A DNA stretch of 64,000 bases from an uncultured Acidimicrobiia bacterium (GTDB lineage: Bacteria > Actinomycetota > Acidimicrobiia > Acidimicrobiales > CAIXPF01): assembly GCA_903921205.1 (NCBI GenBank), contig CAIXPF010000205.1:26657-90656 (forward strand), given 5' to 3'. Below the pieces are notes generated by a model, which was not told where the DNA came from, searched no databases, and saw only the letters and a program-made list of their open reading frames with translations. Both the position numbers and the translations under genes were made by a program. Shown here one piece after another: positions 6,725 through 59,600 of this stretch (positions are counted from its first letter, which is position 1; each line of letters starts with the position of its first letter).

Positions 6725-8635
6725 ATGGGCAACGTGGCGACGGCATTCTGCGCGACCCTGGTCGACGAGTGGGTCCGGGGCGGGCTCGTCGAGGCGTTCA
6801 TCGCACCCGGCTCGCGATCGACGCCATTGGCGTTGGCCCTCGCGGGCCATCCCGGGGTCCGCGACGAGATCGTCCTCGACGAGCGGGTTGCCGGGTTCAT
6901 GGCGCTGGGGTCGGCGTTGGCGTCGGGGCGGCCGGCGGTCGTGCTCACGACATCGGGCACCGCGGTCACCCATCTGCACGCGGCCGTGGTCGAGGCGCAT
7001 CTTTCCGAGGTGCCGCTGCTGGTGTGCACCGCCGACCGGCCTCCCGAGTTGTACGGCGTCGGTGCGGCGCAGACCATCGAACAGCAGCGGATCTTCGGCA
7101 CCGCGGTGCGCGCCTACCTCGATCTCGGCGTGCCCGACGAGCACAATCGCAACGCCTGGCGGTCCCTGGCCGCCCGATCGTTGGCCGAGACGACCGGTTC
7201 GCCGGCGGGCCCCGTGCAACTGAACCTCAGCTTCCGCGAACCGCTGGTGGGCGACGGCGGCCCGATCCCGCCCGGCCGCTCCGACGGACGACCCTGGCAT
7301 CGGCGGGTCGTGCCGGCGGCCACCCCGTCCGATGCGTTGCTCGCCGAGTTGGCCGGATCCTGGATCGGTCGACGAGGGGTGTTCCTGGCGGGAGCGGGGG
7401 TCGACGATCCTCAGGCGGTGCTGGATCTGGCCGAGGAGCTGGGCTGGCCGGTGTTGGCCGAACCCCGCAGCAACACCCGCATCGCCGCGCCCGTGGTCGT
7501 CGCCCATGCCGATGCCATCATCCGGGTGCCGGCCTGGTCCGAACGGCTACGGCCCGAGGTGGTGGTGCAGCTGGGCCAGATGCCCGCATCGAAGGTCCTC
7601 GCCGGCTGGACGAAGGCAGCGGTTTCGGTGCCCGACGTGCCCGACGTGCCCGGCCCGACCGGGCCGACCGGGTCCAATGGCGCGATGCCGGCCGAGCGGG
7701 TGGTCGTGAACGAGGCGGGTTCGTGGTGGGACCCCGACCGCCAGGCTGGGCTGGTCGTGGCCTGTACGCCGGGCCGTCTCGCCGCTGCGCTGTGCGAACG
7801 GCTGCGGGCCGAGCGTGCGCACCACGACGGGTCGTCCTGCGGTGCCGGGTCGGCCGCCGGATCCGACGCGTCGCTGCAGCGATTCGACGTCGATTCGCGG
7901 CCCGCGGGATGGCTTGCTGCCTGGCGCGCCGCCGATGGTGCAGCGGCGAGCGCCCTCGAAGAGGAACTGGCCCGTGGCGCGGACGAGGCCCTGCCGAGCG
8001 AGCCGGCGGTTGCCCGGGCCGCTGCTGCGGCCGCTCACCGCCATGGTGCCGGGGCCCTGGTCGTGTCCTCGTCGATGCCCGTTCGTGACCTCGAGTGGTA
8101 CCTGCCCCGGGCCCCACTCGGCGACAATCCCCCACCCGTGTTGTCCAATCGCGGCGCGAACGGAATCGACGGGGTCGTGTCCACGGCGATCGGTGCGGCC
8201 GTCGCCCTGGCTCCGGCACCGGTCTGGGTGCTGATCGGCGACCTTGCCTTCTTGCACGACAGCAACGCCCTGCTGAACCTGGCCGAGCGCAACATCACGG
8301 TGCGGCTGGTGATCGTGGACAACCGCGGCGGCGGCATCTTCTCGTTCCTGCCGCAGGCCTCCGTCGTGGAGACGGCCACTTTCGAGCGCTTGTTCGGGAC
8401 CCACCAGCAGCTCGATCCGGCGGCGCTGCTGCGGGCGCACGACATCGAGACGGTCGAGCTCGATCGCACCGACCGGCTCGAGCGGGGCCTCGAGGAACTG
8501 GTGCGTTCCACCGCTGCGGTCGCAGCGCTGGTGGTCCGCACCGGCGACCGGGCGTCGAACGTGGCGGCCCATGACCGCCTCCATGCCGCCGTGTCCGCTG
8601 CCCTGGCGACGGTGCCGCCTGCCGACGGGGTCTGA
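6725..8635 (+). CDS. menD: SEPHCHC synthase (thiamine-diphosphate dependent)
   Basis: The ATG at 6725 is preceded by GGAAGGAG. The N-terminus reads GSRSTPLALAL, and the ThDP-binding motif is GDLAFLHDSNAL...VIVDNRGGGIF. The ORF appears longer than I expect for MenD, with low-complexity inserts at about 7620-7900. Confidence 0.9.
   Translation: MGNVATAFCATLVDEWVRGGLVEAFIAPGSRSTPLALALAGHPGVRDEIVLDERVAGFMALGSALASGRPAVVLTTSGTAVTHLHAAVVEAHLSEVPLLVCTADRPPELYGVGAAQTIEQQRIFGTAVRAYLDLGVPDEHNRNAWRSLAARSLAETTGSPAGPVQLNLSFREPLVGDGGPIPPGRSDGRPWHRRVVPAATPSDALLAELAGSWIGRRGVFLAGAGVDDPQAVLDLAEELGWPVLAEPRSNTRIAAPVVVAHADAIIRVPAWSERLRPEVVVQLGQMPASKVLAGWTKAAVSVPDVPDVPGPTGPTGSNGAMPAERVVVNEAGSWWDPDRQAGLVVACTPGRLAAALCERLRAERAHHDGSSCGAGSAAGSDASLQRFDVDSRPAGWLAAWRAADGAAASALEEELARGADEALPSEPAVARAAAAAAHRHGAGALVVSSSMPVRDLEWYLPRAPLGDNPPPVLSNRGANGIDGVVSTAIGAAVALAPAPVWVLIGDLAFLHDSNALLNLAERNITVRLVIVDNRGGGIFSFLPQASVVETATFERLFGTHQQLDPAALLRAHDIETVELDRTDRLERGLEELVRSTAAVAALVVRTGDRASNVAAHDRLHAAVSAALATVPPADGV
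7880..7897. repeat. Core repeat copy 1 (CGATTCGACGTCGATTCG), in frame inside menD
   Basis: This is the exact reverse complement of the cores at 28470 and 59506. It is translated as (Q)RFDVDSR. After the core, the reverse complement continues CTGCAG, similar to the CTGCGAG that follows copy 4. Confidence 0.85.
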
Positions 8636-17635: not shown

Positions 17636-18196
17636 TCAGCCGGCGAGGGGGAACCCGACGGCCTCTCGGCGCCGGCTGACGCCGGGTTCGCCGGTGCTGT
17701 TCCACTCGTAGACCCCACGGCGTACCCGGCGCGCCCGGCCCTGTTCGACCTCGTACGCCAGCGCGTCGGCCAGACCCTTGACCGGGTGCGGGACGGCGAC
17801 CTCGTAGCCGTGCCGATGGAGTAGGGCGTGCAACGCGGACAGTGGGAGTGCGCCACTGGCCCGGAGCAGGGCCGTACAGACCGCGCGGAGGCGCCGACCC
17901 CACAAGGGAACCGCCTGATGGGCCAGCGGCGGAAGCTTCTCTCGGCCTTCGGGGCTCGGCGCGCGTCCACGGCGGTGTCCGAAGTTCGGGAACAGCCTTC
18001 GGCGGTGCTGCTCGAGCCTTTGTCGGAGCTGGGCATGCCGTGCGGCGCGTTCGGCCATCTCTGCCTCGAGGGCGGCGAGCTGTGCCTCGAGCTGGGCACA
18101 TCGATCGATGAGCTCTTGACGGGGTCGGCCGAGCGGGAGGCCGAACTGGCGGACAGGATCGATGCGCCTGTGGTCGAAGGAATCGGCGACGGACAT
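17636..18196 (-). CDS. Hypothetical protein (186 aa): coiled coil plus a C-terminal winged-helix-like region
   Basis: The ATG at 18196 is preceded by AAAGGTGG. It has more A/T-ending codons than the neighbouring genes. No family recognised. Confidence 0.55.
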   Translation of the reverse strand: MSVADSFDHRRIDPVRQFGLPLGRPRQELIDRCAQLEAQLAALEAEMAERAARHAQLRQRLEQHRRRLFPNFGHRRGRAPSPEGREKLPPLAHQAVPLWGRRLRAVCTALLRASGALPLSALHALLHRHGYEVAVPHPVKGLADALAYEVEQGRARRVRRGVYEWNSTGEPGVSRRREAVGFPLAG

Positions 18197-18369
18197 GGCA
18201 ACCACCTTTGGGAGATGGCGTCTCAGAGAGGCCGGAACACGAACGATCGTCTGGCCTGATCGATTCCGGCCAGTATCACCGGCGCCTATGACAGCGAAGA
18301 AGGTCACAATTAGCGATCTCGCCGACGCTCAACGTGAAAATCGTGCTCGGGGAGGGAAGCGCACTGTGC

Positions 18370-18407
18370 CCGCTCGGGGCGAATCGACGTCGATTCGCCC
18401 CGAGCGG
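18370..18407. repeat. Perfect 38-bp palindrome containing core repeat copy 2 (18380..18397)
   Basis: The sequence CCGCTCGGGGCGAATCGAC|GTCGATTCGCCCCGAGCGG is exactly self-complementary, with 19-nt arms. It is intergenic. Its central 18 nt match the core found at 7880, 28470, 28500 and 59506. Confidence 0.9.
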
Positions 18408-18473
18408 ACGCACTCGTGATCTGCTTGCTCCCCGTTCCACTTCCAAGAGTGAAAAATTGACCGCTATAGGTGG

Positions 18474-18671
18474 TCATGCTCGAGGGAGGGTTCGAAGGAG
18501 GCGTTCGAGGCGGCGCACCCCCGAACGCAGGGAGCGTTCTGCTTCCTCGAGTTCGACGGCGTGCTGTTCGGCCTTCACCCGGAACTGCTCGTCGGCCAGG
18601 GCTGCCACACGTGCGGTGAGCTCCTCCAGCGAGGACGTGATGGTGGACAGCTGCGCGGCGAGGCTGGTCAT
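18474..18671 (-). CDS. Possible small coiled-coil protein (65 aa)
   Basis: This is the tail of track ORF 18474..19013, from the ATG at 18671 (MTSLAAQLSTITSSLEELTARVAALADEQF...). Third codon positions are GC-rich, but there is no clear Shine-Dalgarno sequence and no family match. Low confidence. Confidence 0.35.
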   Translation of the reverse strand: MTSLAAQLSTITSSLEELTARVAALADEQFRVKAEQHAVELEEAERSLRSGVRRLERLLRTLPRA

Positions 18672-18742
18672 CGGGCCACGGTAGGCGCGTCGATACGTCC
18701 GAACGGACGAGCGTTCGGCCCGGTCGGTAGCGTTGGGGTGCC

Positions 18743-20038
18743 ATGTTGAAGCGACTCGATGTCCGCGGTGTGCCGCTCGAGGCTCTCCGCCACGCCCTAC
18801 CCAAGCCGCTCGCCGCCGGCGAAGAACCGGTCGCCGCCGTTCGAGAGATCCTGGATGCGGTCGAATCGGACGGCGACGAGGCGGTGCGCGCCTACACCGA
18901 GCGATTCGACCAGGTCCGCCTCGAGCAGCTTCGCGTCCCCGCCGAGGAGCTCGTAGCGGCGCTCGCGGGCCTCGACCCGACCACCAGGGCGGCGCTCGAA
19001 GCTGCGGCAGCATCGATCAGGGCGTACCAATCGGCCACGCTCACGCCGCCGCACACCCACGACGCCGACGGGGTGACCATCCGTTCCTGGCGTCAGCCGG
19101 TGGCCCGAGCGGGCTGTTATGTGCCCGGAGGTCGCGCCATCTACCCGTCGACGGTCCTGATGACGGCGATCCCGGCCAAGGTGGCGGGGGTCGAGGAGGT
19201 TGCGCTCTGCGTGCCGCCGAACCGGGAGGGCCGCGTTCCCGCAGTAACGCTTGCAGCTGCCGCCGTCGCCGGGGTGGACGAGGTGTACGCCATCGGCGGA
19301 GCACAGGCCATCGGGGCGCTTGCGTTCGGTACGGAGTCCATCCGGCCGGTGGATGTGATCGTCGGCCCAGGCAACGTGTACGTGGCGATTGCCAAGCGTG
19401 AGGTGGCCGGCCGCGGTCTGGTGGCGATCCCGTCGGCCTTCGCCGGCCCGTCCGAGGTCGTCGTCGTGGCGGACGAGACGGTGCCGGCAGAGTTCGCAGC
19501 CATCGACGTCATCGTGCAGGCCGAACACGGCCCTGACGGCCTGGCGTGGCTGGTCTGTTGGTCGGACAGCGTGGCCGACGCGGTCAGCGCAGCCATCGAG
19601 CGCCTCGTGGAGTCGGCACCACGAAAGACAGAGATCCTCGCGACGCTCGAGCTCAATGGCTATGTGGTCGTGTGCGACGATCCGGCCCAGGCCATCGAGG
19701 TGGCGAACGTCATCGCCCCGGAGCACCTGCAGCTGATGTGCGACGCTGCGATCGCCGAGGTCGATCGGGTCCGCAACGCCGGCGCCGTGTTCCTCGGGCA
19801 GCACGCACCGGCTTCGATCGGCGACTACGCCGCCGGCCCGAGCCACACCCTGCCCACCTACGGTTCCGCCCGCTTCGCCTCGGTGCTCTCGGTGGATGAT
19901 TTCACCAAGCACATGCACACCATCGAGGTGACCCCCTCGGGGTTCGAGCGGCTCGCCCCCCATGTCGTCGCCCTCGCCCTCGCCGAGGGTTTCGACGCCC
20001 ACGCCTCCTCCATCACCCTGCGTCAGGCTGCCCGATGA
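18743..20038 (+). CDS. hisD: Histidinol dehydrogenase
   Basis: 431 aa with a collinear HisD pattern including QAEHGPDG and the C-terminal HisD region. First gene of the his operon. Confidence 0.95.
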   Translation: MLKRLDVRGVPLEALRHALPKPLAAGEEPVAAVREILDAVESDGDEAVRAYTERFDQVRLEQLRVPAEELVAALAGLDPTTRAALEAAAASIRAYQSATLTPPHTHDADGVTIRSWRQPVARAGCYVPGGRAIYPSTVLMTAIPAKVAGVEEVALCVPPNREGRVPAVTLAAAAVAGVDEVYAIGGAQAIGALAFGTESIRPVDVIVGPGNVYVAIAKREVAGRGLVAIPSAFAGPSEVVVVADETVPAEFAAIDVIVQAEHGPDGLAWLVCWSDSVADAVSAAIERLVESAPRKTEILATLELNGYVVVCDDPAQAIEVANVIAPEHLQLMCDAAIAEVDRVRNAGAVFLGQHAPASIGDYAAGPSHTLPTYGSARFASVLSVDDFTKHMHTIEVTPSGFERLAPHVVALALAEGFDAHASSITLRQAAR

Positions 20039-28149: not shown

Positions 28150-30447
28150 ATGTCGGAGCAGTCCTCCACGATGAGCCAGCAGTACCGCACCCTCGGTGGA
28201 ATCGTCGTCCACCGAACCGTCGAATCGGTGACCGCGGCGCCGGCCGTCGAGTCCCTCATCGACCGGCTCGATGCCCGCCGCGGGGTGTTGCTGTCCTCGA
28301 GCTACGAGTACCCGGGGCGCTACACCCGGTGGGATCTCGGCTTTGCCGACCCGCCGCTGTCGGTCTGGGCCCGTCAGCGAGAGGTTCACGTCGAGGCGCT
28401 CAACGCCCGCGGTGCCGTGCTGCTGCCGGCCGTCGCTGCGTCTCTCGGCGCGCTCGACCTCGATCGCGCCGAATCGACGTCGAATCGCCCCGACTTCGTC
28501 GAATCGGTGTCGATTCGGCCCGAGGGGATCGACCTCGTCGTCCGCCGCCCCGACCGCCGCTTCGAGGAGGAGGAACGCAGCCGTCAGCCCTCGGTCTTCT
28601 CGGTCGTCCGGACCCTCATCGATCTGTTCCGCTCCCCGGACGACCCCCATCTCGGCCTCTACGGCGCCTTCGGCTACGACCTGGCGTTCCAGTTCGAGGA
28701 GTTGCGGCTCCACCTGGAGCGTCCGGACGAGCAGCGGGACCTCGTGCTGTACCTGCCCGACGAGCTGCTCGTCGTCGATCATCGGCGCGAACAGGGCGAA
28801 CGCCGCCGGTACGACTTCACGGTGAGCGGCGCCGACGGCGCGCCCGTCACGACCCTGGGACTCGAGCGGTCCGGGGTGGCGTTGCGGTACCGGCCGCGGC
28901 CTGCCGTGGCGGCCGGAAGCGATCACCGACCGGGTGAGTACGCCGCCCTGGTCGATGAGGCCAAGGCCTCCTTCCGCCGGGGTGATCTGTTCGAGGTGGT
29001 ACCCGGCCAGTGTTTCACCGAGCCCTGTCCCGCCTCGCCGTCGGAACTGTTCCGTCGCCTGCGCGAGCGCAACCCGTCGCCCTACGGGTTCCTGATCAAC
29101 CTCGGCGAGGCGCCGACGCGCTCGGACCCCGAGGCGGGGGAGTGGCTGGTCGGTGCGTCCCCTGAGATGTACGTCCGGGTCGACGAGGACCGGGTGGAGA
29201 CATGCCCGATCTCCGGCACGATCGCCCGTGGACGCGACCCGATCTCCGACGCCGCCCAGATCCTGGCCCTGTTGAACTCCGACAAGGATGCGTCGGAGTT
29301 GACCATGTGCACCGACGTCGACCGCAACGACAAGTCGCGGATCTGCGTGCCCGGGTCGGTCAAGGTCATCGGCCGCCGCCAGATCGAGATGTACTCCCGG
29401 CTGATCCACACGGTGGATCATGTCGAGGGCCGCTTGCGTCCGGGCTTCGACGCGCTCGATGCCTTCCTCAGCCACACCTGGGCGGTGATGGTGACCGGGG
29501 CGCCGAAGGCGTGGGCGATGCAGTGGATCGAGGCCCACGAACGTTCGCCGCGGGCGTGGTACGGCGGCGCGGTGGGCATGGTCGGCTTCAACGGCAACAT
29601 GAACACCGGCCTGACCTTGCGCACCATCCGGCTGACCGGCGGCGCGGCCCAGGTCCGGGTGGGCGCAACGCTGCTGTTCGACTCCGACCCCGAGGCAGAG
29701 GAGGCCGAGACGCAGCTCAAGGCGTCGGCGTTCCTCGACGCGATCCGCAACCCCGGACCACCCGCAGCCCCTGCCGGAGCGACCCCGGGTCTGCTCAGCG
29801 GGGCGCCCGCCGGTCTGGCCGATGAGCCCGGTGCCGGCCGTCGGGTCCTGCTCGTCGATCACCAGGACAGCTTCGTGCACACCCTGGCCAACTACTTCCG
29901 GGCCACCGGCGCCGAGGTGGTCACGCTGTGCTGCCCGCCGGAAGGAGCAGGCCTCGACCCGGCCGAGCTCGACCGGGTCGCCCCCGATCTGGTGGTGCTC
30001 TCGCCCGGCCCGGGCCGGCCGAGCGATTTCGGCGTGGGCCGGACGATCGCCGCCGTCCTCGAGCGGGGCCTGCCGCTGTTCGGCGTGTGCCTGGGTCTGC
30101 AGGGCATCGTCGAGCACTTCGGTGGCGAGCTCGGCGTGCTGGATCCGCCCATGCACGGGAAGGCCTCGGCGATCGTGGCCGGGTCGACCGCGCTGTTCGC
30201 GGGCCTCCCGTCACCGTTCCTCGCCGGGCGCTACCACTCGCTGTTCGCCCGTGCCGAGCAACTCCCCGATGTCCTGCAGGCCACCGCACACAGCGATGAT
30301 GGGGTGGTGATGGCAATCGAGCACCGCACCCTGCCGGTGTCCGCCGTGCAGTTCCACCCCGAGTCGATCATGTCGCTCGGCGATGAGGCCGGCATGCAGC
30401 TGGTTGCCAACGTGCTACGGACGATGCCGGCGGCGAGACCGACGTGA
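28150..30447 (+). CDS. trpE: Anthranilate synthase, fused component I-component II, TrpE(G) type
   Basis: The ATG at 28150 is preceded by GGAAG. The N-terminus LSSSYEYPGRYTRWD and GAFGYDLAFQFE are typical of fused TrpE(G). The chorismate-binding core has PSPYGF, GTIARG and GGAVG. The C-terminal class I GATase domain has GVCLGLQG and FHPES. Confidence 0.9.
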   Translation: MSEQSSTMSQQYRTLGGIVVHRTVESVTAAPAVESLIDRLDARRGVLLSSSYEYPGRYTRWDLGFADPPLSVWARQREVHVEALNARGAVLLPAVAASLGALDLDRAESTSNRPDFVESVSIRPEGIDLVVRRPDRRFEEEERSRQPSVFSVVRTLIDLFRSPDDPHLGLYGAFGYDLAFQFEELRLHLERPDEQRDLVLYLPDELLVVDHRREQGERRRYDFTVSGADGAPVTTLGLERSGVALRYRPRPAVAAGSDHRPGEYAALVDEAKASFRRGDLFEVVPGQCFTEPCPASPSELFRRLRERNPSPYGFLINLGEAPTRSDPEAGEWLVGASPEMYVRVDEDRVETCPISGTIARGRDPISDAAQILALLNSDKDASELTMCTDVDRNDKSRICVPGSVKVIGRRQIEMYSRLIHTVDHVEGRLRPGFDALDAFLSHTWAVMVTGAPKAWAMQWIEAHERSPRAWYGGAVGMVGFNGNMNTGLTLRTIRLTGGAAQVRVGATLLFDSDPEAEEAETQLKASAFLDAIRNPGPPAAPAGATPGLLSGAPAGLADEPGAGRRVLLVDHQDSFVHTLANYFRATGAEVVTLCCPPEGAGLDPAELDRVAPDLVVLSPGPGRPSDFGVGRTIAAVLERGLPLFGVCLGLQGIVEHFGGELGVLDPPMHGKASAIVAGSTALFAGLPSPFLAGRYHSLFARAEQLPDVLQATAHSDDGVVMAIEHRTLPVSAVQFHPESIMSLGDEAGMQLVANVLRTMPAARPT
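28470..28517. repeat. Core repeat copies 3a (28470..28487, exact) and 3b (28500..28517, 16/18), in frame inside trpE(G)
   Basis: Copy 3a, CGAATCGACGTCGAATCG, is followed by CCCCGA, as in the 18.4-kb palindrome. Twelve nt later comes copy 3b, CGAATCGGTGTCGATTCG, followed by GCCCGAG. Together they are translated as A-ESTSNRPDFVESVSIRPE. Confidence 0.85.
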
Positions 30448-42543: not shown

Positions 42544-42624
42544 GCCCGGGTGGTGGAATGGCAGACACGGAGGACTCAAAATCCTTTGCCGCAAGGCGTG
42601 CGGGTTCGAGTCCCGCCCCGGGCA
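42544..42624 (+). tRNA. tRNA-Leu (anticodon CAA)
   Basis: I folded the cloverleaf by hand. The acceptor stem pairs GCCCGGG with CCCGGGC, with discriminator A. The anticodon stem pairs GAGGA with TCCTT around the loop CTCAAAA. There is a long variable arm (TGCCGCAAGGCGT). The T arm is GCGGG-TTCGAGT-CCCGC. No CCA is encoded. Confidence 0.9.
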
Positions 42625-48553: not shown

Positions 48554-48594
48554 TGAGGGCTCTCCCTCGCTGACTGCCACGAGCGGAAAACGTT

Positions 48595-48632
48595 CGGTGC
48601 CGGGCCCATTGGGCCCGGCACCGGTGTTTTTC
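48595..48632. terminator. Bidirectional intrinsic terminator (rpsA and the convergent response regulator)
   Basis: A 13-bp stem pairs CGGTGCCGGGCCC with GGGCCCGGCACCG and is followed by GTGTTTTTCG on the plus strand. On the minus strand a GTTTTCC tract follows after a short spacer. Confidence 0.75.
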
Positions 48633-59343: not shown

Positions 59344-59505
59344 CCGAGCTGTCCTCGGGGGATGCCCGGTCGATCACGTTGCGCGCGCATGTGGCCGTCG
59401 ATGTACGTAGTGCACCGGCTATGACGGTCGGTGAACTCGACCCCGCTCCCGCCGAATTCGCCGAAAAAACCGGACTGAGCAGCAGTTTTAGCGAGTTCGT
59501 CGCAG

Positions 59506-59523
59506 CGAATCGACGTCGAATCG
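59506..59523. repeat. Core repeat copy 4 (CGAATCGACGTCGAATCG), intergenic
   Basis: Identical to copy 3a. It is embedded in a local hairpin that pairs CGCAGCGA with TCGCTGCG. It lies in the 257-nt, relatively AT-rich spacer between convergent uvrA and ribBA. Confidence 0.85.
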
Positions 59524-59600
59524 CTGCGAGCGAAATCCGCTCGGCGCTCCGGGGCGCGGCGAAGAACAGCCACTCTTCGTGGTGGGACGGCGTGGCTGGG

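Follow-up and report, generated by a model that had tools for sequence, protein, structure and literature searches.

A 38-bp palindrome upstream of a putative winged-helix protein gene in Acidimicrobiia, and its dispersed copies

Introduction

A 64,000-nucleotide stretch of DNA from an uncultured Acidimicrobiia bacterium (contig CAIXPF010000205.1), referred to here as the window, contains a perfect palindrome in front of a small gene of the minus strand. An earlier note, made from the sequence alone, asked whether this palindrome is the master copy of a dispersed repeat and proposed three roles for it: a miniature element that inserts in frame into genes, an operator for a dimeric DNA-binding protein, and a cruciform or terminator. 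The question addressed here is which of these the palindrome is, and with what gene, if any, it is paired. Acidimicrobiia are found in abundance in soil and wastewater as well as in freshwater and the sea; to our knowledge, almost nothing is known of their gene regulation.

The palindrome and its locus

The features of the locus are as follows.

17636–18196, minus strand: gene of a 186-amino acid candidate cognate binding protein, termed orf186
18272–18293, minus strand: promoter-like motif TGTCAT-N10-GATACT, of PafBC-type architecture
18370–18407, no strand assigned: gene-linked copy of the element, a perfect 38-bp palindrome, exactly self-complementary
18474–18671, minus strand: 65-amino acid coiled-coil open reading frame, conserved in loci L118 and L121, in the same orientation as orf186 and divergent from hisD

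The palindrome has the sequence CCGCTCGGGGCGAATCGACGTCGATTCGCCCCGAGCGG and occurs once in the window. Its self-complementarity over 38 bp with no spacer, as described in the earlier note, was confirmed. It is the top inverted repeat of the window by length and by score, and none of 100 shuffles gave a match to the 38-mer with up to three mismatches allowed. The predicted folding energy of the 38-mer is −47.6 kcal/mol for RNA (z = −7.9) and −29.1 kcal/mol for DNA (z = −7.4). The distance from the palindrome to the ATG of orf186 (18196) is 174 nt, and that to hisD (18743) is 336 nt, in agreement with the approximate distances of 175 and 335 nt given previously. The stop codon of the 65-amino acid open reading frame is 67 nt from the palindrome; a Pfam/NCBIfam search of this reading frame gave no match to any protein family.

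Two overlapping open reading frames, 18162–18419 on the plus strand and 18310–18804 on the minus strand, both translate as ...ARGESTSIRPER..., which bears out the observation that the two strands encode the same peptide. Neither is called by a codon-usage gene caller, and they are thus considered artefacts of a 70% G+C genome. Since the same spurious peptide arises from both strands, the element may cause assembly or annotation artefacts. A search of the window with Rfam 15 gave a tRNA as the sole match at or above the gathering score, with sub-threshold miRNA-like hairpin matches at the palindrome locus.

Copies of the core within the window

The central 18 nt of the palindrome, CGAATCGACGTCGATTCG, has five matches in the window where 0.04 are expected. 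Apart from the palindrome itself (core at 18380), these are at 7880 (one mismatch), 28470 (one), 28500 (two) and 59506 (one), so that all four additional sites listed earlier, with 0 to 2 changes, were recovered with one or two mismatches each. The sites at 18380 and 59506 are intergenic; those at 7880, 28470 and 28500 are inside genes.

59500–59529, no strand assigned: second intergenic copy, a 30-bp near-palindrome, TCGCAGCGAATCGACGTCGAATCGCTGCGA
28464–28493, plus strand: copy 3a in the fused trpE(G) gene, translated as AESTSNRP
28500–28517, plus strand: copy 3b in the fused trpE(G) gene, two changes, translated as ESVSIR
7880–7897, plus strand: core copy in a TPP-enzyme gene, frame 0, translated as RFDVDS, with weakly palindromic flanks

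The second intergenic copy is flanked by uvrA and ribBA, two convergent genes whose stop codons are 162 nt and 77 nt away, respectively. The copy at 28470 displays 24 nt of the 38-mer with one change (CGAATCGACGTCGAaTCGCCCCGA), and GCCCGAG follows the copy at 28500; the sharing of flanks is therefore as the earlier note had it, and of the peptides it reported within trpE(G), ESTSNRP is found in the translation of copy 3a and the first six residues of ESVSIRPE in that of copy 3b.

Copy 3a is within a 12-amino acid insertion relative to TrpE homologues from outside the Acidimicrobiia. The nearest TrpE homologue has an insertion there too, of 10 amino acids and with another sequence, and the DNA of this homologue shows no recognisable remnant of copy 3a. 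The segment with copy 3b can be aligned in all TrpE homologues; since the nearest homologue also has its first half, GTCGAATCG (Val-Glu-Ser), this half is probably coding sequence inherited from an ancestor. The copy at 7880 may be a codon-driven chance match or a decayed copy of the element, and its reading frame (frame 0) is that of chance matches in unrelated phyla. No extended element was found around the window copies; their similarity to all other loci is limited to 18–41 nt.

Architecture and covariation of the element

Forty-seven distinct palindromes were aligned and compared with partner-shuffled controls. Watson-Crick pairing at positions 2–19 is 70%–96%, compared with 30%–60% in the controls, and three to four pair types are present at most variable stem positions. 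An invariant GAWTC is present in each arm, with a CCGT/ACGG block at the outer end about one helical turn away. The bases between these two words differ by lineage, with complementarity retained.

The family element is an inverted repeat of 38–40 bp, and the alignment of copies places its ends, at 19 bp per arm, where the earlier note had placed those of the window copy. The window arm, CCGC-TC-GGGG-CGAATCGAC, fits the family plan CCGT-NN-GCGK-CGAWTCGAC, with GAWTC at positions 4–8 from the dyad. The ACGT at the centre of the element is conserved. Complementarity is not maintained at the central W of GAWTC, which is A/A or T/T in 55 of 93 dispersed copies. A dimer bound to the duplex leaves the covariation at unconserved positions unexplained, hence intrastrand pairing or arm-to-arm copying is required.

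Association of the palindrome with the orf186 gene family

Eighty metagenome loci were fetched solely by protein homology to the product of 17636–18196, and 64 of these include upstream DNA. At least 43 of the 64 have a 30–60-bp GAWTC-N6/7-GAWTC palindrome 79–460 nt upstream of the gene; only two such units are found elsewhere in these loci. About one third of the family loci are without a clear palindrome, and some of these have degenerate ones. The window and two other genomes (L032 and L066) have non-syntenic neighbourhoods, and in all three the core is 157–220 nt upstream of the homologue. In the orthologous loci L121 and L118 the palindrome is kept where the surrounding intergenic DNA has diverged, and there are two compensatory double changes in the outer stem. 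The gene family and the palindrome thus travel together across many lineages and in different neighbourhoods. Besides orf186 itself, no recurrent neighbour was found among 80 flanking proteins, and the downstream neighbours are housekeeping genes.

The palindrome is conserved upstream of the orf186 gene across homologues, as is expected of an autoregulatory operator, and among the three roles proposed in the earlier note, an operator upstream of the 17636–18196 gene is the best supported. A related palindrome is present in at least 43 of 64 loci, and the probable binder is the predicted winged-helix protein that the gene itself encodes.

The motif at 18272–18293, unique in the intergenic DNA of the window, is separated from the palindrome by 76 nt and precedes the ATG by about 76 nt. 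The consensus of PafBC-dependent promoters is tGTCgg(N10)tA(N3)T, with GTC strictly conserved (PMC8635444). A TGTC-N12-TAN3T motif is present between palindrome and gene in most of the homologous loci, with TGGC replacing TGTC in some. The distance from palindrome to motif is variable (about 0–110 nt) and unphased, which is unusual for a simple repressor operator. No PafBC-like promoters were found beside dispersed copies of the element; the orf186 copy alone has one.

Properties of the orf186 protein

The AlphaFold2 model of orf186 displays a helix at aa positions 24–68 (coiled coil), a Pro/Gly/Arg linker and a winged helix at positions 96–165. The winged helix has a pLDDT of about 90 in a model that was built on five sequences and has a pTM of 0.41. 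A Foldseek search gave generic winged-helix matches (Rok DNA-binding domain, Zur, PadR), the best being the Rok domain with an E-value of about 1e-2, and sequence searches gave no meaningful relatives of solved structure. There are weak matches to AbiEi winged helix-turn-helix models, and no Pfam or NCBIfam family was found. The sequence LADALxYE (residues 142–149), in the predicted recognition-helix region, is invariant in the family, which parallels the invariant GAWTC of the element.

The family consists of 406 clusters and is restricted to Acidimicrobiia. All labels are “hypothetical protein” with the exception of one “chorismate mutase”. Three other origins or contexts were considered and rejected: a phage origin (one match in 2.9 million viral contigs), a plasmid origin (no plasmid homologue of orf186) and a defence-system or toxin-antitoxin context (the AbiEi matches are weak and the neighbours are housekeeping genes).

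Dispersed copies in Acidimicrobiia

The core scan comprises at least 117 loci, about 100 of them from Acidimicrobiia among the matches listed. The genome of the window is not among the loci scanned. Acidimicrobiia genomes have a strong excess of the core, so that the description of a dispersed repeat holds. Of 118 exact-core copies in Acidimicrobiia loci, 81% are intergenic, though coding DNA makes up 86% of the sequence; most matches in other phyla fall within genes, in frame 0. This distribution, together with the excess of matches in the window, excludes a chance or codon-driven motif. Several metagenome-assembled genomes (MAGs) have at least 10–15 copies.

Dispersed copies are found mostly near gene 3′ ends, with a median distance of 84 nt past the stop codon. 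They are enriched where two genes converge; divergent promoter regions hold only 7 of 78 copies. The dispersed copies are thus not a classical regulon. They follow the plan CCGT-NN-GCGK-core and fall into genome-specific flank subfamilies. In one MAG (BC3.65) there is a doublet of 165–320 bp with two inverted units 127 nt apart, present in at least six copies with 81%–89% identity. Clusters of two to three units, about 100–115 nt apart, are found in L112, L105 and L061.

The spacing type of the dispersed copies matches that of the gene-linked copy. N6-type loci (714 kb) contain 64 N6 and no N7 elements, and N7-type loci (83 kb) contain seven N7 and no N6 elements, a comparison that is one-sided because the N6 loci were selected via the N6 core. 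As dispersed and gene-linked copies are of the same type within a genome, a role of the gene-linked copy as master copy is plausible, and we carry the suggestion no further than that.

Copies in frame within coding sequences are present in a TrpE loop, the DnaX tau linker, a ChlD-like linker and a DinB tail. In-frame copies of the kind put forward in the earlier note thus exist, but as a minority (19% of copies), and of the window examples those at 28500 and 7880 are doubtful.

Discussion

The proposed pairing of palindrome and protein

The palindrome may be the cis partner of orf186, i.e. the cognate DNA site of its predicted winged-helix product, which has been amplified in the manner of REP sequences. 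The pairing of protein and site is deduced from co-occurrence and from the predicted fold, and we consider the chances of this interpretation to be about even. The protein would oligomerise via its coiled coil and bind the palindrome via its winged helices, contacting either the two GAWTC half-sites in the duplex or an extruded hairpin or cruciform. Binding would set the expression of orf186 itself, which is probably induced by DNA damage. The dispersed copies would be further orf186 sites, spread REP-style, and orf186 may have a genome-wide role such as that of nucleoid-associated proteins on REP/BIME elements.

A bolder form of this interpretation is a so far undescribed REP-like system whose partner is not a transposase; here a damage-inducible coiled-coil/winged-helix protein would read hairpins or cruciforms through GAWTC and CCGT. 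We regard it as possible, if rather unlikely.

Alternative explanations

The palindrome could instead be a REP/REPIN-type mobile element, selfish or domesticated, that was spread by a RAYT-like or other transposase; the copy at orf186 would then be a long-fixed insertion and orf186 would not bind it. REP sequences are defined as palindromes of high abundance that form BIMEs and flank RAYT genes, with a criterion of more than 100 copies per genome (PMC2817692). The extragenic enrichment, the bias to 3′ ends and convergent genes, the genome-specific flank subfamilies, the inverted doublets of BC3.65, the clusters of two to three units and the in-frame copies in protein linkers are all in keeping with such an element. 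However, a chance insertion that became fixed cannot explain upstream palindromes in at least 43 of 64 loci, across both the N6 and N7 classes. A search of about 0.9 Mb surrounding the copies gave no Y1 transposase (best tblastn E-value = 2.9, with approximate IS200 TnpA and YafM queries), and Y1_Tnp is absent among the 25 most frequent families of the 80 neighbouring proteins. Moreover, the gene is preceded by a single unit, with no second inverted unit flanking it, and the core is conserved class-wide, whereas REPs are usually species-specific. Spread by a transposase, with orf186 a bystander, is therefore judged unlikely.

A function at the RNA level is a further alternative: the palindrome would be a factor-independent bidirectional terminator or a 3′-end mRNA stabiliser, and the window copy would end the transcript of 18474–18671 and insulate orf186. 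The strong RNA fold, the position of the window copy just past the stop codon of a co-directional gene, the placement of dispersed copies shortly after stop codons and between convergent genes, and the fact that, in 22 of 35 loci, the upstream neighbour of the orf186-linked palindrome is co-directional are in accordance with this. The details of the element are not. There is no T-run on either side of the palindrome; a conventional A/T-flanked bidirectional hairpin is found in the window at 48586–48632. In at least 10 loci the orf186-linked palindrome comes after the 5′ end, not the 3′ end, of its upstream neighbour, a verified divergent gene. Mismatches in the stem show no excess of G·U over A·C (26 vs. 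30; 50 vs. 54), and the orientation of asymmetric cores is unbiased (28 vs. 21). A terminator has no need of invariant words such as GAWTC and CCGT, or of conservation at its ACGT centre, and no Rfam family was matched. The terminator suggested in the earlier note is thus unsupported as the main role, and we hold an RNA hairpin to be quite improbable as the explanation of the family. A role of the dispersed copies as U-less actinobacterial terminators may nevertheless exist.

The least probable reading, which we think very unlikely, is that the palindrome is the site of another trans factor (a global regulator, a site-specific recombinase, or a GANTC methyltransferase or reader) and that orf186 is only a regulated target. 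GANTC is the site of CcrM/HinfI-type methylation, a GANTC-like invariant word (GAWTC) is present twice per element, and the distance from palindrome to promoter is variable, but the flanking proteins show no recurrent neighbour other than orf186, the downstream genes are housekeeping genes, and autoregulation is the simplest account of a tight, lineage-wide pairing with one small DNA-binding-type gene.

Implications

Returning to orf186 as the proposed binder of the palindrome, a specific 38-bp site is now paired with an orphan protein family of about 400 clusters in Acidimicrobiia. In the bolder and rather unlikely form given above, the cell would have a damage-responsive protein with a sequence-specific architectural or roadblock function at dozens of gene 3′ ends, and the element it recognises could spread, in some cases in frame into the linkers of proteins. 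If orf186 binds the dispersed copies, REP-like families can arise and persist around a partner that is not a transposase, which would be relevant to an old question, namely by what means REPs are maintained. With a PafBC-type promoter, the LexA-independent damage response outside mycobacteria would gain a conserved, uncharacterised gene. The element may also be used as a lineage marker.

Comparison with known systems

No RAYT, Rfam family or paper matches the element; a literature search with the N6 and N7 core sequence strings yielded no paper.

The palindromic elements (RPE) of Rickettsia, with lengths of about 100–150 bp, resemble the element in that palindromic copies are found in frame within genes, at tolerant loops or linkers. 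The likeness is an analogy only. The present unit is 38 bp and about 19% coding, and several of its “coding” copies are chance matches or gene-calling artefacts.

In AbiEi antitoxins and MarR/PadR-type repressors, a small winged helix-turn-helix protein adjoins a palindrome upstream of its own promoter, as here, and orf186 has its weak match to the AbiEi domain. The present site differs in being 38–60 bp long, with an arm covariation that protein contacts do not explain, in lying at a variable distance upstream of the promoter and not over it, and in having been amplified to many non-promoter places. There is also no adjacent toxin or partner gene.

The putative promoters before orf186-family genes share with the damage-induced PafBC (RecA-NDp) promoters of Actinobacteria the TGTC at about −26, the TAnnnT −10 element and the published spacing. 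The likeness concerns the promoter beside the palindrome, not the palindrome, and some loci have TGGC.

Proteins of the H-NS-like/Rok, MatP-matS and Noc-NBS type are comparable in size and predicted plan (about 190 aa, an N-terminal coiled coil, a flexible linker and a C-terminal DNA-binding domain) and in having dozens of dispersed sites, here with the relatively A/T-rich GAWTC in a genome of 70% G+C. The Rok domain is the best fold match of orf186, but a generic one. Unlike the AT-rich tracts of H-NS-like proteins and Rok, the Acidimicrobiia sites are long, specific palindromes.

There are parallels, and several differences, with the REP/BIME/REPIN sequences and RAYT proteins of Enterobacteria, Pseudomonas and Stenotrophomonas. 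Unlike RAYT, orf186 is predicted to be a coiled coil plus a winged helix without an HUH/Y1 nuclease domain, and its gene has one preceding element. REPs have a 5′ GTAG/CGTC tag beside a variable hairpin, whereas the Acidimicrobiia words are internal (GAWTC) and outer (CCGT/ACGG); some subfamilies start with GTAG or GTAC, with no consistent tag outside the stem. The Acidimicrobiia element has no spacer between its arms, its centre is conserved, and its core is shared over a whole class and not a species. The two systems are alike in being extragenic palindromes of about 34–38 bp with tens of copies per genome. REPs are often arranged in BIME or REPIN composites, and doublets and clusters are found for the Acidimicrobiia element too. 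Both share the preference for gene 3′ ends and for the DNA between convergent genes, the genome-specific subfamilies and, in one MAG, paired inverted units separated by a conserved spacer. In both, a single-copy chromosomal gene is linked to a copy of the element, and the type of that copy tracks the type of the dispersed copies.

The palindrome and its copies in the window

Positions 18370–18407 are occupied by CCGCTCGGGGCGAATCGACGTCGATTCGCCCCGAGCGG, an exact, spacer-less 38-bp palindrome. It is the best inverted repeat of the whole window (70% G+C), and, with up to 3 mismatches allowed, it occurs there once and is not matched in 100 shuffles. Predicted folding energies are −47.6 kcal/mol for the RNA form (z = −7.9) and −29.1 kcal/mol for the DNA form. 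The gene order around it is as follows.

Features between hisD and nth
18474–18671, minus strand: conserved coiled-coil open reading frame of 65 aa, divergent from hisD (18743)
67 nt: spacer from this open reading frame to the palindrome
18370–18407: palindrome
76 nt: spacer from the palindrome to the promoter-like motif
18293–18272, minus strand: promoter-like motif TGTCAT-N10-GATACT
about 76 nt: spacer from the motif to the orf186 ATG at 18196
17636–18196, minus strand: orf186, 186 aa, convergent with nth

The central 18 nt of the palindrome (the core) recur four times, each with 1–2 changes, which makes five matches against 0.04 expected. Thus both the palindrome and the recurrences described in the earlier note are confirmed. 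No longer element was found around the window copies.

Core copies in the window
7880: inside a TPP-enzyme gene
28470 and 28500 (copies 3a and 3b): inside the fused trpE(G) gene
59506: 30-bp near-palindrome between convergent uvrA and ribBA

The earlier note also states that both strands encode the same peptide. Open reading frames with ...ARGESTSIRPER... are indeed present on both strands, but the codon-usage gene caller calls neither, and they are considered to be artefacts of high G+C content. The 65-aa open reading frame has no family match; its protein sequence is conserved in two orthologous loci, L118 and L121.

Association of the palindrome with orf186

Clustering of the proteins encoded near core copies yielded one rare recurrent neighbour, homologues of orf186. 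In L032 and L066 a core copy is found 157–220 nt upstream of the homologue, with no other synteny to the window. L121 and L118 keep the order hisD, small open reading frame, palindrome, orf186, nth. In L121 (protein 77% identical) the palindrome GCTCGAGGCGAATCGACGTCGATTCGCCCCGAGC is present amid diverged spacer DNA. In L118 (56% identical) it is ACTAGGGGCGAATCGGCGGCGATTCGCCGCTAGT, with a changed centre and with two outer pairs changed on both sides, C-G and G-C to A-T.

Eighty metagenome loci were retrieved by orf186 protein similarity alone, and 64 of these include upstream DNA. A GAWTC-N6/7-GAWTC unit within a 30–60-bp palindrome lies 79–460 nt upstream of the gene in 43 of the 64, and degenerate versions are present in several further loci; only two such units occur elsewhere in these loci. 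The cis element and the gene form a conserved module. Among the hypotheses of the earlier note, an operator upstream of orf186 has the most support, and the chance that the orf186 protein is its binder is about even.

An alignment of 47 distinct gene-linked palindromes on the dyad displays strong covariation of the arms: pairing at positions 2–19 is 70–96%, compared with 30–60% in partner-shuffled controls, and most of the variable stem positions show 3–4 pair types. Covariation of this strength means that intrastrand pairing or arm-to-arm copying matters. Positions 4–8 are an invariant GAWTC, whose two occurrences span 18381–18396 in the window, and positions 16–19 form a second conserved block, CCGT/ACGG; these conserved words imply specific recognition.

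The palindromes fall into two spacing classes, N6 (e.g. GAATCGACGTCGATTC and GATTCTGCGCAGAATC) and N7 (e.g. GATTCTTCGNGAAGAATC and GATTCGTTCGACGAATC). In N7-class genomes (L204–L207, L199, L154, L171) the orf186 homologue often has purN/purH on one side and sucD/sucC on the other; that of L206 is in a trp/his neighbourhood resembling that of the window. In L205 the homologue is of note in that two tandem N7 palindromes, 57 nt apart, precede it. On long contigs with four N7-class genes, 83 kb of surrounding sequence contain seven N7 elements (four gene-linked, one tandem partner and two dispersed) and no N6 elements. The 714 kb of N6-type loci contain 64 symmetric N6 and no N7 elements, a one-sided comparison because these loci were chosen through the N6 core. 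Such type matching would be expected of a co-evolving protein-site pair, or of spread from the gene-linked copy.

The orf186 family and its promoter-like motif

Searches of Pfam and NCBIfam assigned orf186 to no family, and there are weak matches to AbiEi winged-helix models. The AF2 model (built on 5 sequences; pTM 0.41) has a long helix at residues 24–68, a disordered Pro/Gly/Arg linker and a winged helix at 96–165 (pLDDT ~90). Foldseek with this model gave generic winged-helix DNA-binding domains only, the Rok DNA-binding domain first, then Zur and PadR (E ~1e-2). The family comprises 406 clusters at 50% identity (E ≤1e-3) among 1.84 billion representatives. Members are about 160–250 aa, are annotated as hypothetical and, where the host is named, come from Acidimicrobiia or unclassified Actinomycetota. 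The sequence LADALxYE (residues 142–149), in the predicted recognition-helix region, is invariant, a counterpart to the constant GAWTC of the palindrome.

The gene is monocistronic and set among housekeeping genes. The next gene downstream is usually encoded on the other strand; sucD takes this place in 12 loci, a class IV aminotransferase in 7 loci and a Cys/Met PLP enzyme in 6 loci. A plasmid search yielded no homologues.

Between palindrome and start codon most loci have a TGTC(A/G)CAC-N8-TAnnnT block, e.g. TGTCACACCCGGCAGTTACCGT in L159, with TGGC in place of TGTC in some. The palindrome lies about 0–110 nt away, depending on the locus.

Loci with the block
Window, 18272–18293, minus strand
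L118, L121, L122, L126, L127, L141, L156
L159, L162, L174, L180, L183, L188, L199

In composition and spacing the block matches the PafBC/RecA-NDp promoter, whose motif is tGTCgg(N10)tA(N3)T (PMC8635444), a −26 and a −10 element serving the mycobacterial DNA-damage response (PMC8635444, PMC6789036). The intergenic DNA of the window has exactly one PafBC-like motif, in front of orf186, and none was found beside dispersed copies. This motif architecture is the basis for suggesting that the orf186 family may be an uncharacterised damage-inducible gene in Acidimicrobiia.

Dispersed copies in Acidimicrobiia

One genome per species was scanned with the core (CGAWTCGACGTCGAWTCG), which gave at least 117 loci. 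About 100 of those listed are Acidimicrobiia (Iamiaceae, Microthrixaceae and Aquihabitans among them); several MAGs account for at least 9–15 copies apiece among the matches listed. The few matches listed from other phyla fall mostly in coding DNA, in frame 0 (R-I/F-D-V-D-S), as chance would predict. Among 2.9 million viral contigs there was one match.

In the Acidimicrobiia loci listed, 81% of 118 core copies are intergenic, with coding DNA making up 86% of the sequence. Seventy-eight intergenic copies have both neighbours called (46 tandem, 25 convergent and 7 divergent gene pairs), and copies lie downstream of a stop codon at a median of 84 nt. These gene assignments come from the codon-usage caller, whose calls are imperfect. 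The element has undergone REP-like amplification within Acidimicrobiia, in agreement with the dispersed repeat proposed earlier.

A constant 4 nt separates the two CGAWTCG halves, with ACGT or a one-base variant at the centre. Flanks vary among genomes, but complementarity is kept for ~8 bp further (pairing at position 6 is 0.65, compared with 0.27 in controls). The unit is CCGT-NN-GCGK-CGAWTCGAC / GTCGAWTCG-MCGC-NN-ACGG; it measures 19+19 bp, exactly the palindrome marked in the earlier note. The arms do not keep the central W complementary to each other (A/A or T/T in 55 out of 93 dispersed copies). GANTC, the site of CcrM/HinfI-type adenine methylation, includes GAWTC.

In MAG BC3.65 (JAWKIM01) a 165–320-bp doublet is present in at least 6 copies with 81–89% identity (L042 6980–7300, L057 4950–5270, L092, L117, L074, L062, L032). 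As in a REPIN, two inverted units, here 127 nt apart, surround a conserved spacer. One doublet precedes the orf186 homologue of this MAG. In other genomes, 2–3 units are clustered at about 100–115 nt spacing.

A few other arrangements were seen. At about 4530–4570 of L096 the half-site word forms tandem direct repeats, (GGTCGAATC)x4, with one full palindrome on either side. In the upstream region of L032 a 17-nt tandem array, (GACCTGCGGCACGGAGC)n, adjoins the doublet. MAG BP_73 (flanks in L063 and L059) has isolated CGAATYCG-like words 12–14 nt from cores. L019 (717–734), a contig binned as Gemmatimonadales, contains a full element, extended by 10 complementary bp (ggtgtcacgg-core-ccgtgacacc). 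This could reflect mis-binning of an Acidimicrobiia contig or a wider distribution of the element.

Copies within protein-coding genes

In-frame insertion into genes had also been proposed. Verified in-frame copies occupy disordered or variable protein segments, and the ESTSNR reading frame recurs among them.

Verified in-frame copies
L066: DnaX tau linker, two copies 30 bp apart
L017: ChlD-like linker
L081: DinB C-terminal tail
Window: TrpE loop

The anthranilate synthase of the window (28150–30447) is a fused TrpE-TrpG (Chorismate_bind + GATase) with a lineage-specific loop insertion in its N-terminal domain, the site of copy 3a. This copy is within a 12-aa insertion relative to ~60%-identity homologues from other phyla; at this point a 10-aa insertion of unrelated sequence is present in the nearest Acidimicrobiia homologue. 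Copy 3b has an aligned counterpart in every homologue, and that nearest one shares its first half (GTCGAATCG). Several other coding copies are chance matches or gene-calling artefacts. Given this mixed comparison, in-frame insertion is plausible only.

Function of the palindrome and comparison with known systems

A terminator at the gene-linked palindromes, another earlier suggestion, is unlikely as the main role. Ten upstream neighbours are verified divergent genes (including three purN-like formyltransferases, an MFS transporter, CinA and an aldehyde dehydrogenase), so that no transcript ends there. There is no T-run after the hairpin, unlike the 23-nt-arm hairpin at 48586–48632, between convergent genes, which has A- and T-runs at its sides (GAAAAC...GTTTTTC) and resembles a conventional bidirectional terminator. 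Stem mismatches show no G.T excess in the gene-linked set (26 G.T, 30 A.C), with similar counts in dispersed copies oriented by the upstream gene (50 and 54), and asymmetric cores have no orientation bias (28 and 21). Together with the missing T-run and the divergent neighbours, this makes the symmetry look DNA-level. No Rfam family matches the palindrome; the sole Rfam match in the window at the gathering threshold is a tRNA gene (42544–42624).

The orf186 product, a coiled-coil/winged-helix protein, is predicted to bind the palindrome, as duplex or as extruded hairpin. By doing so it would set its own, probably damage-inducible, expression, and it would also occupy dispersed copies. This reading as a whole is about as likely as not.

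A literature search with the N6 and N7 core sequences found no paper. The closest known analogue of the dispersed family is REP/REPIN-RAYT, of which a transposase is a defining part (PMC2817692). In about 0.9 Mb around the copies, tblastn with IS200 TnpA and YafM queries found no Y1-type transposase, and the linked protein is without a nuclease domain, so the family departs from that system in its defining part. The gene-linked copy is comparable to the autoregulatory operator of a winged-helix protein, from which it differs in being an unusually long, structured site.
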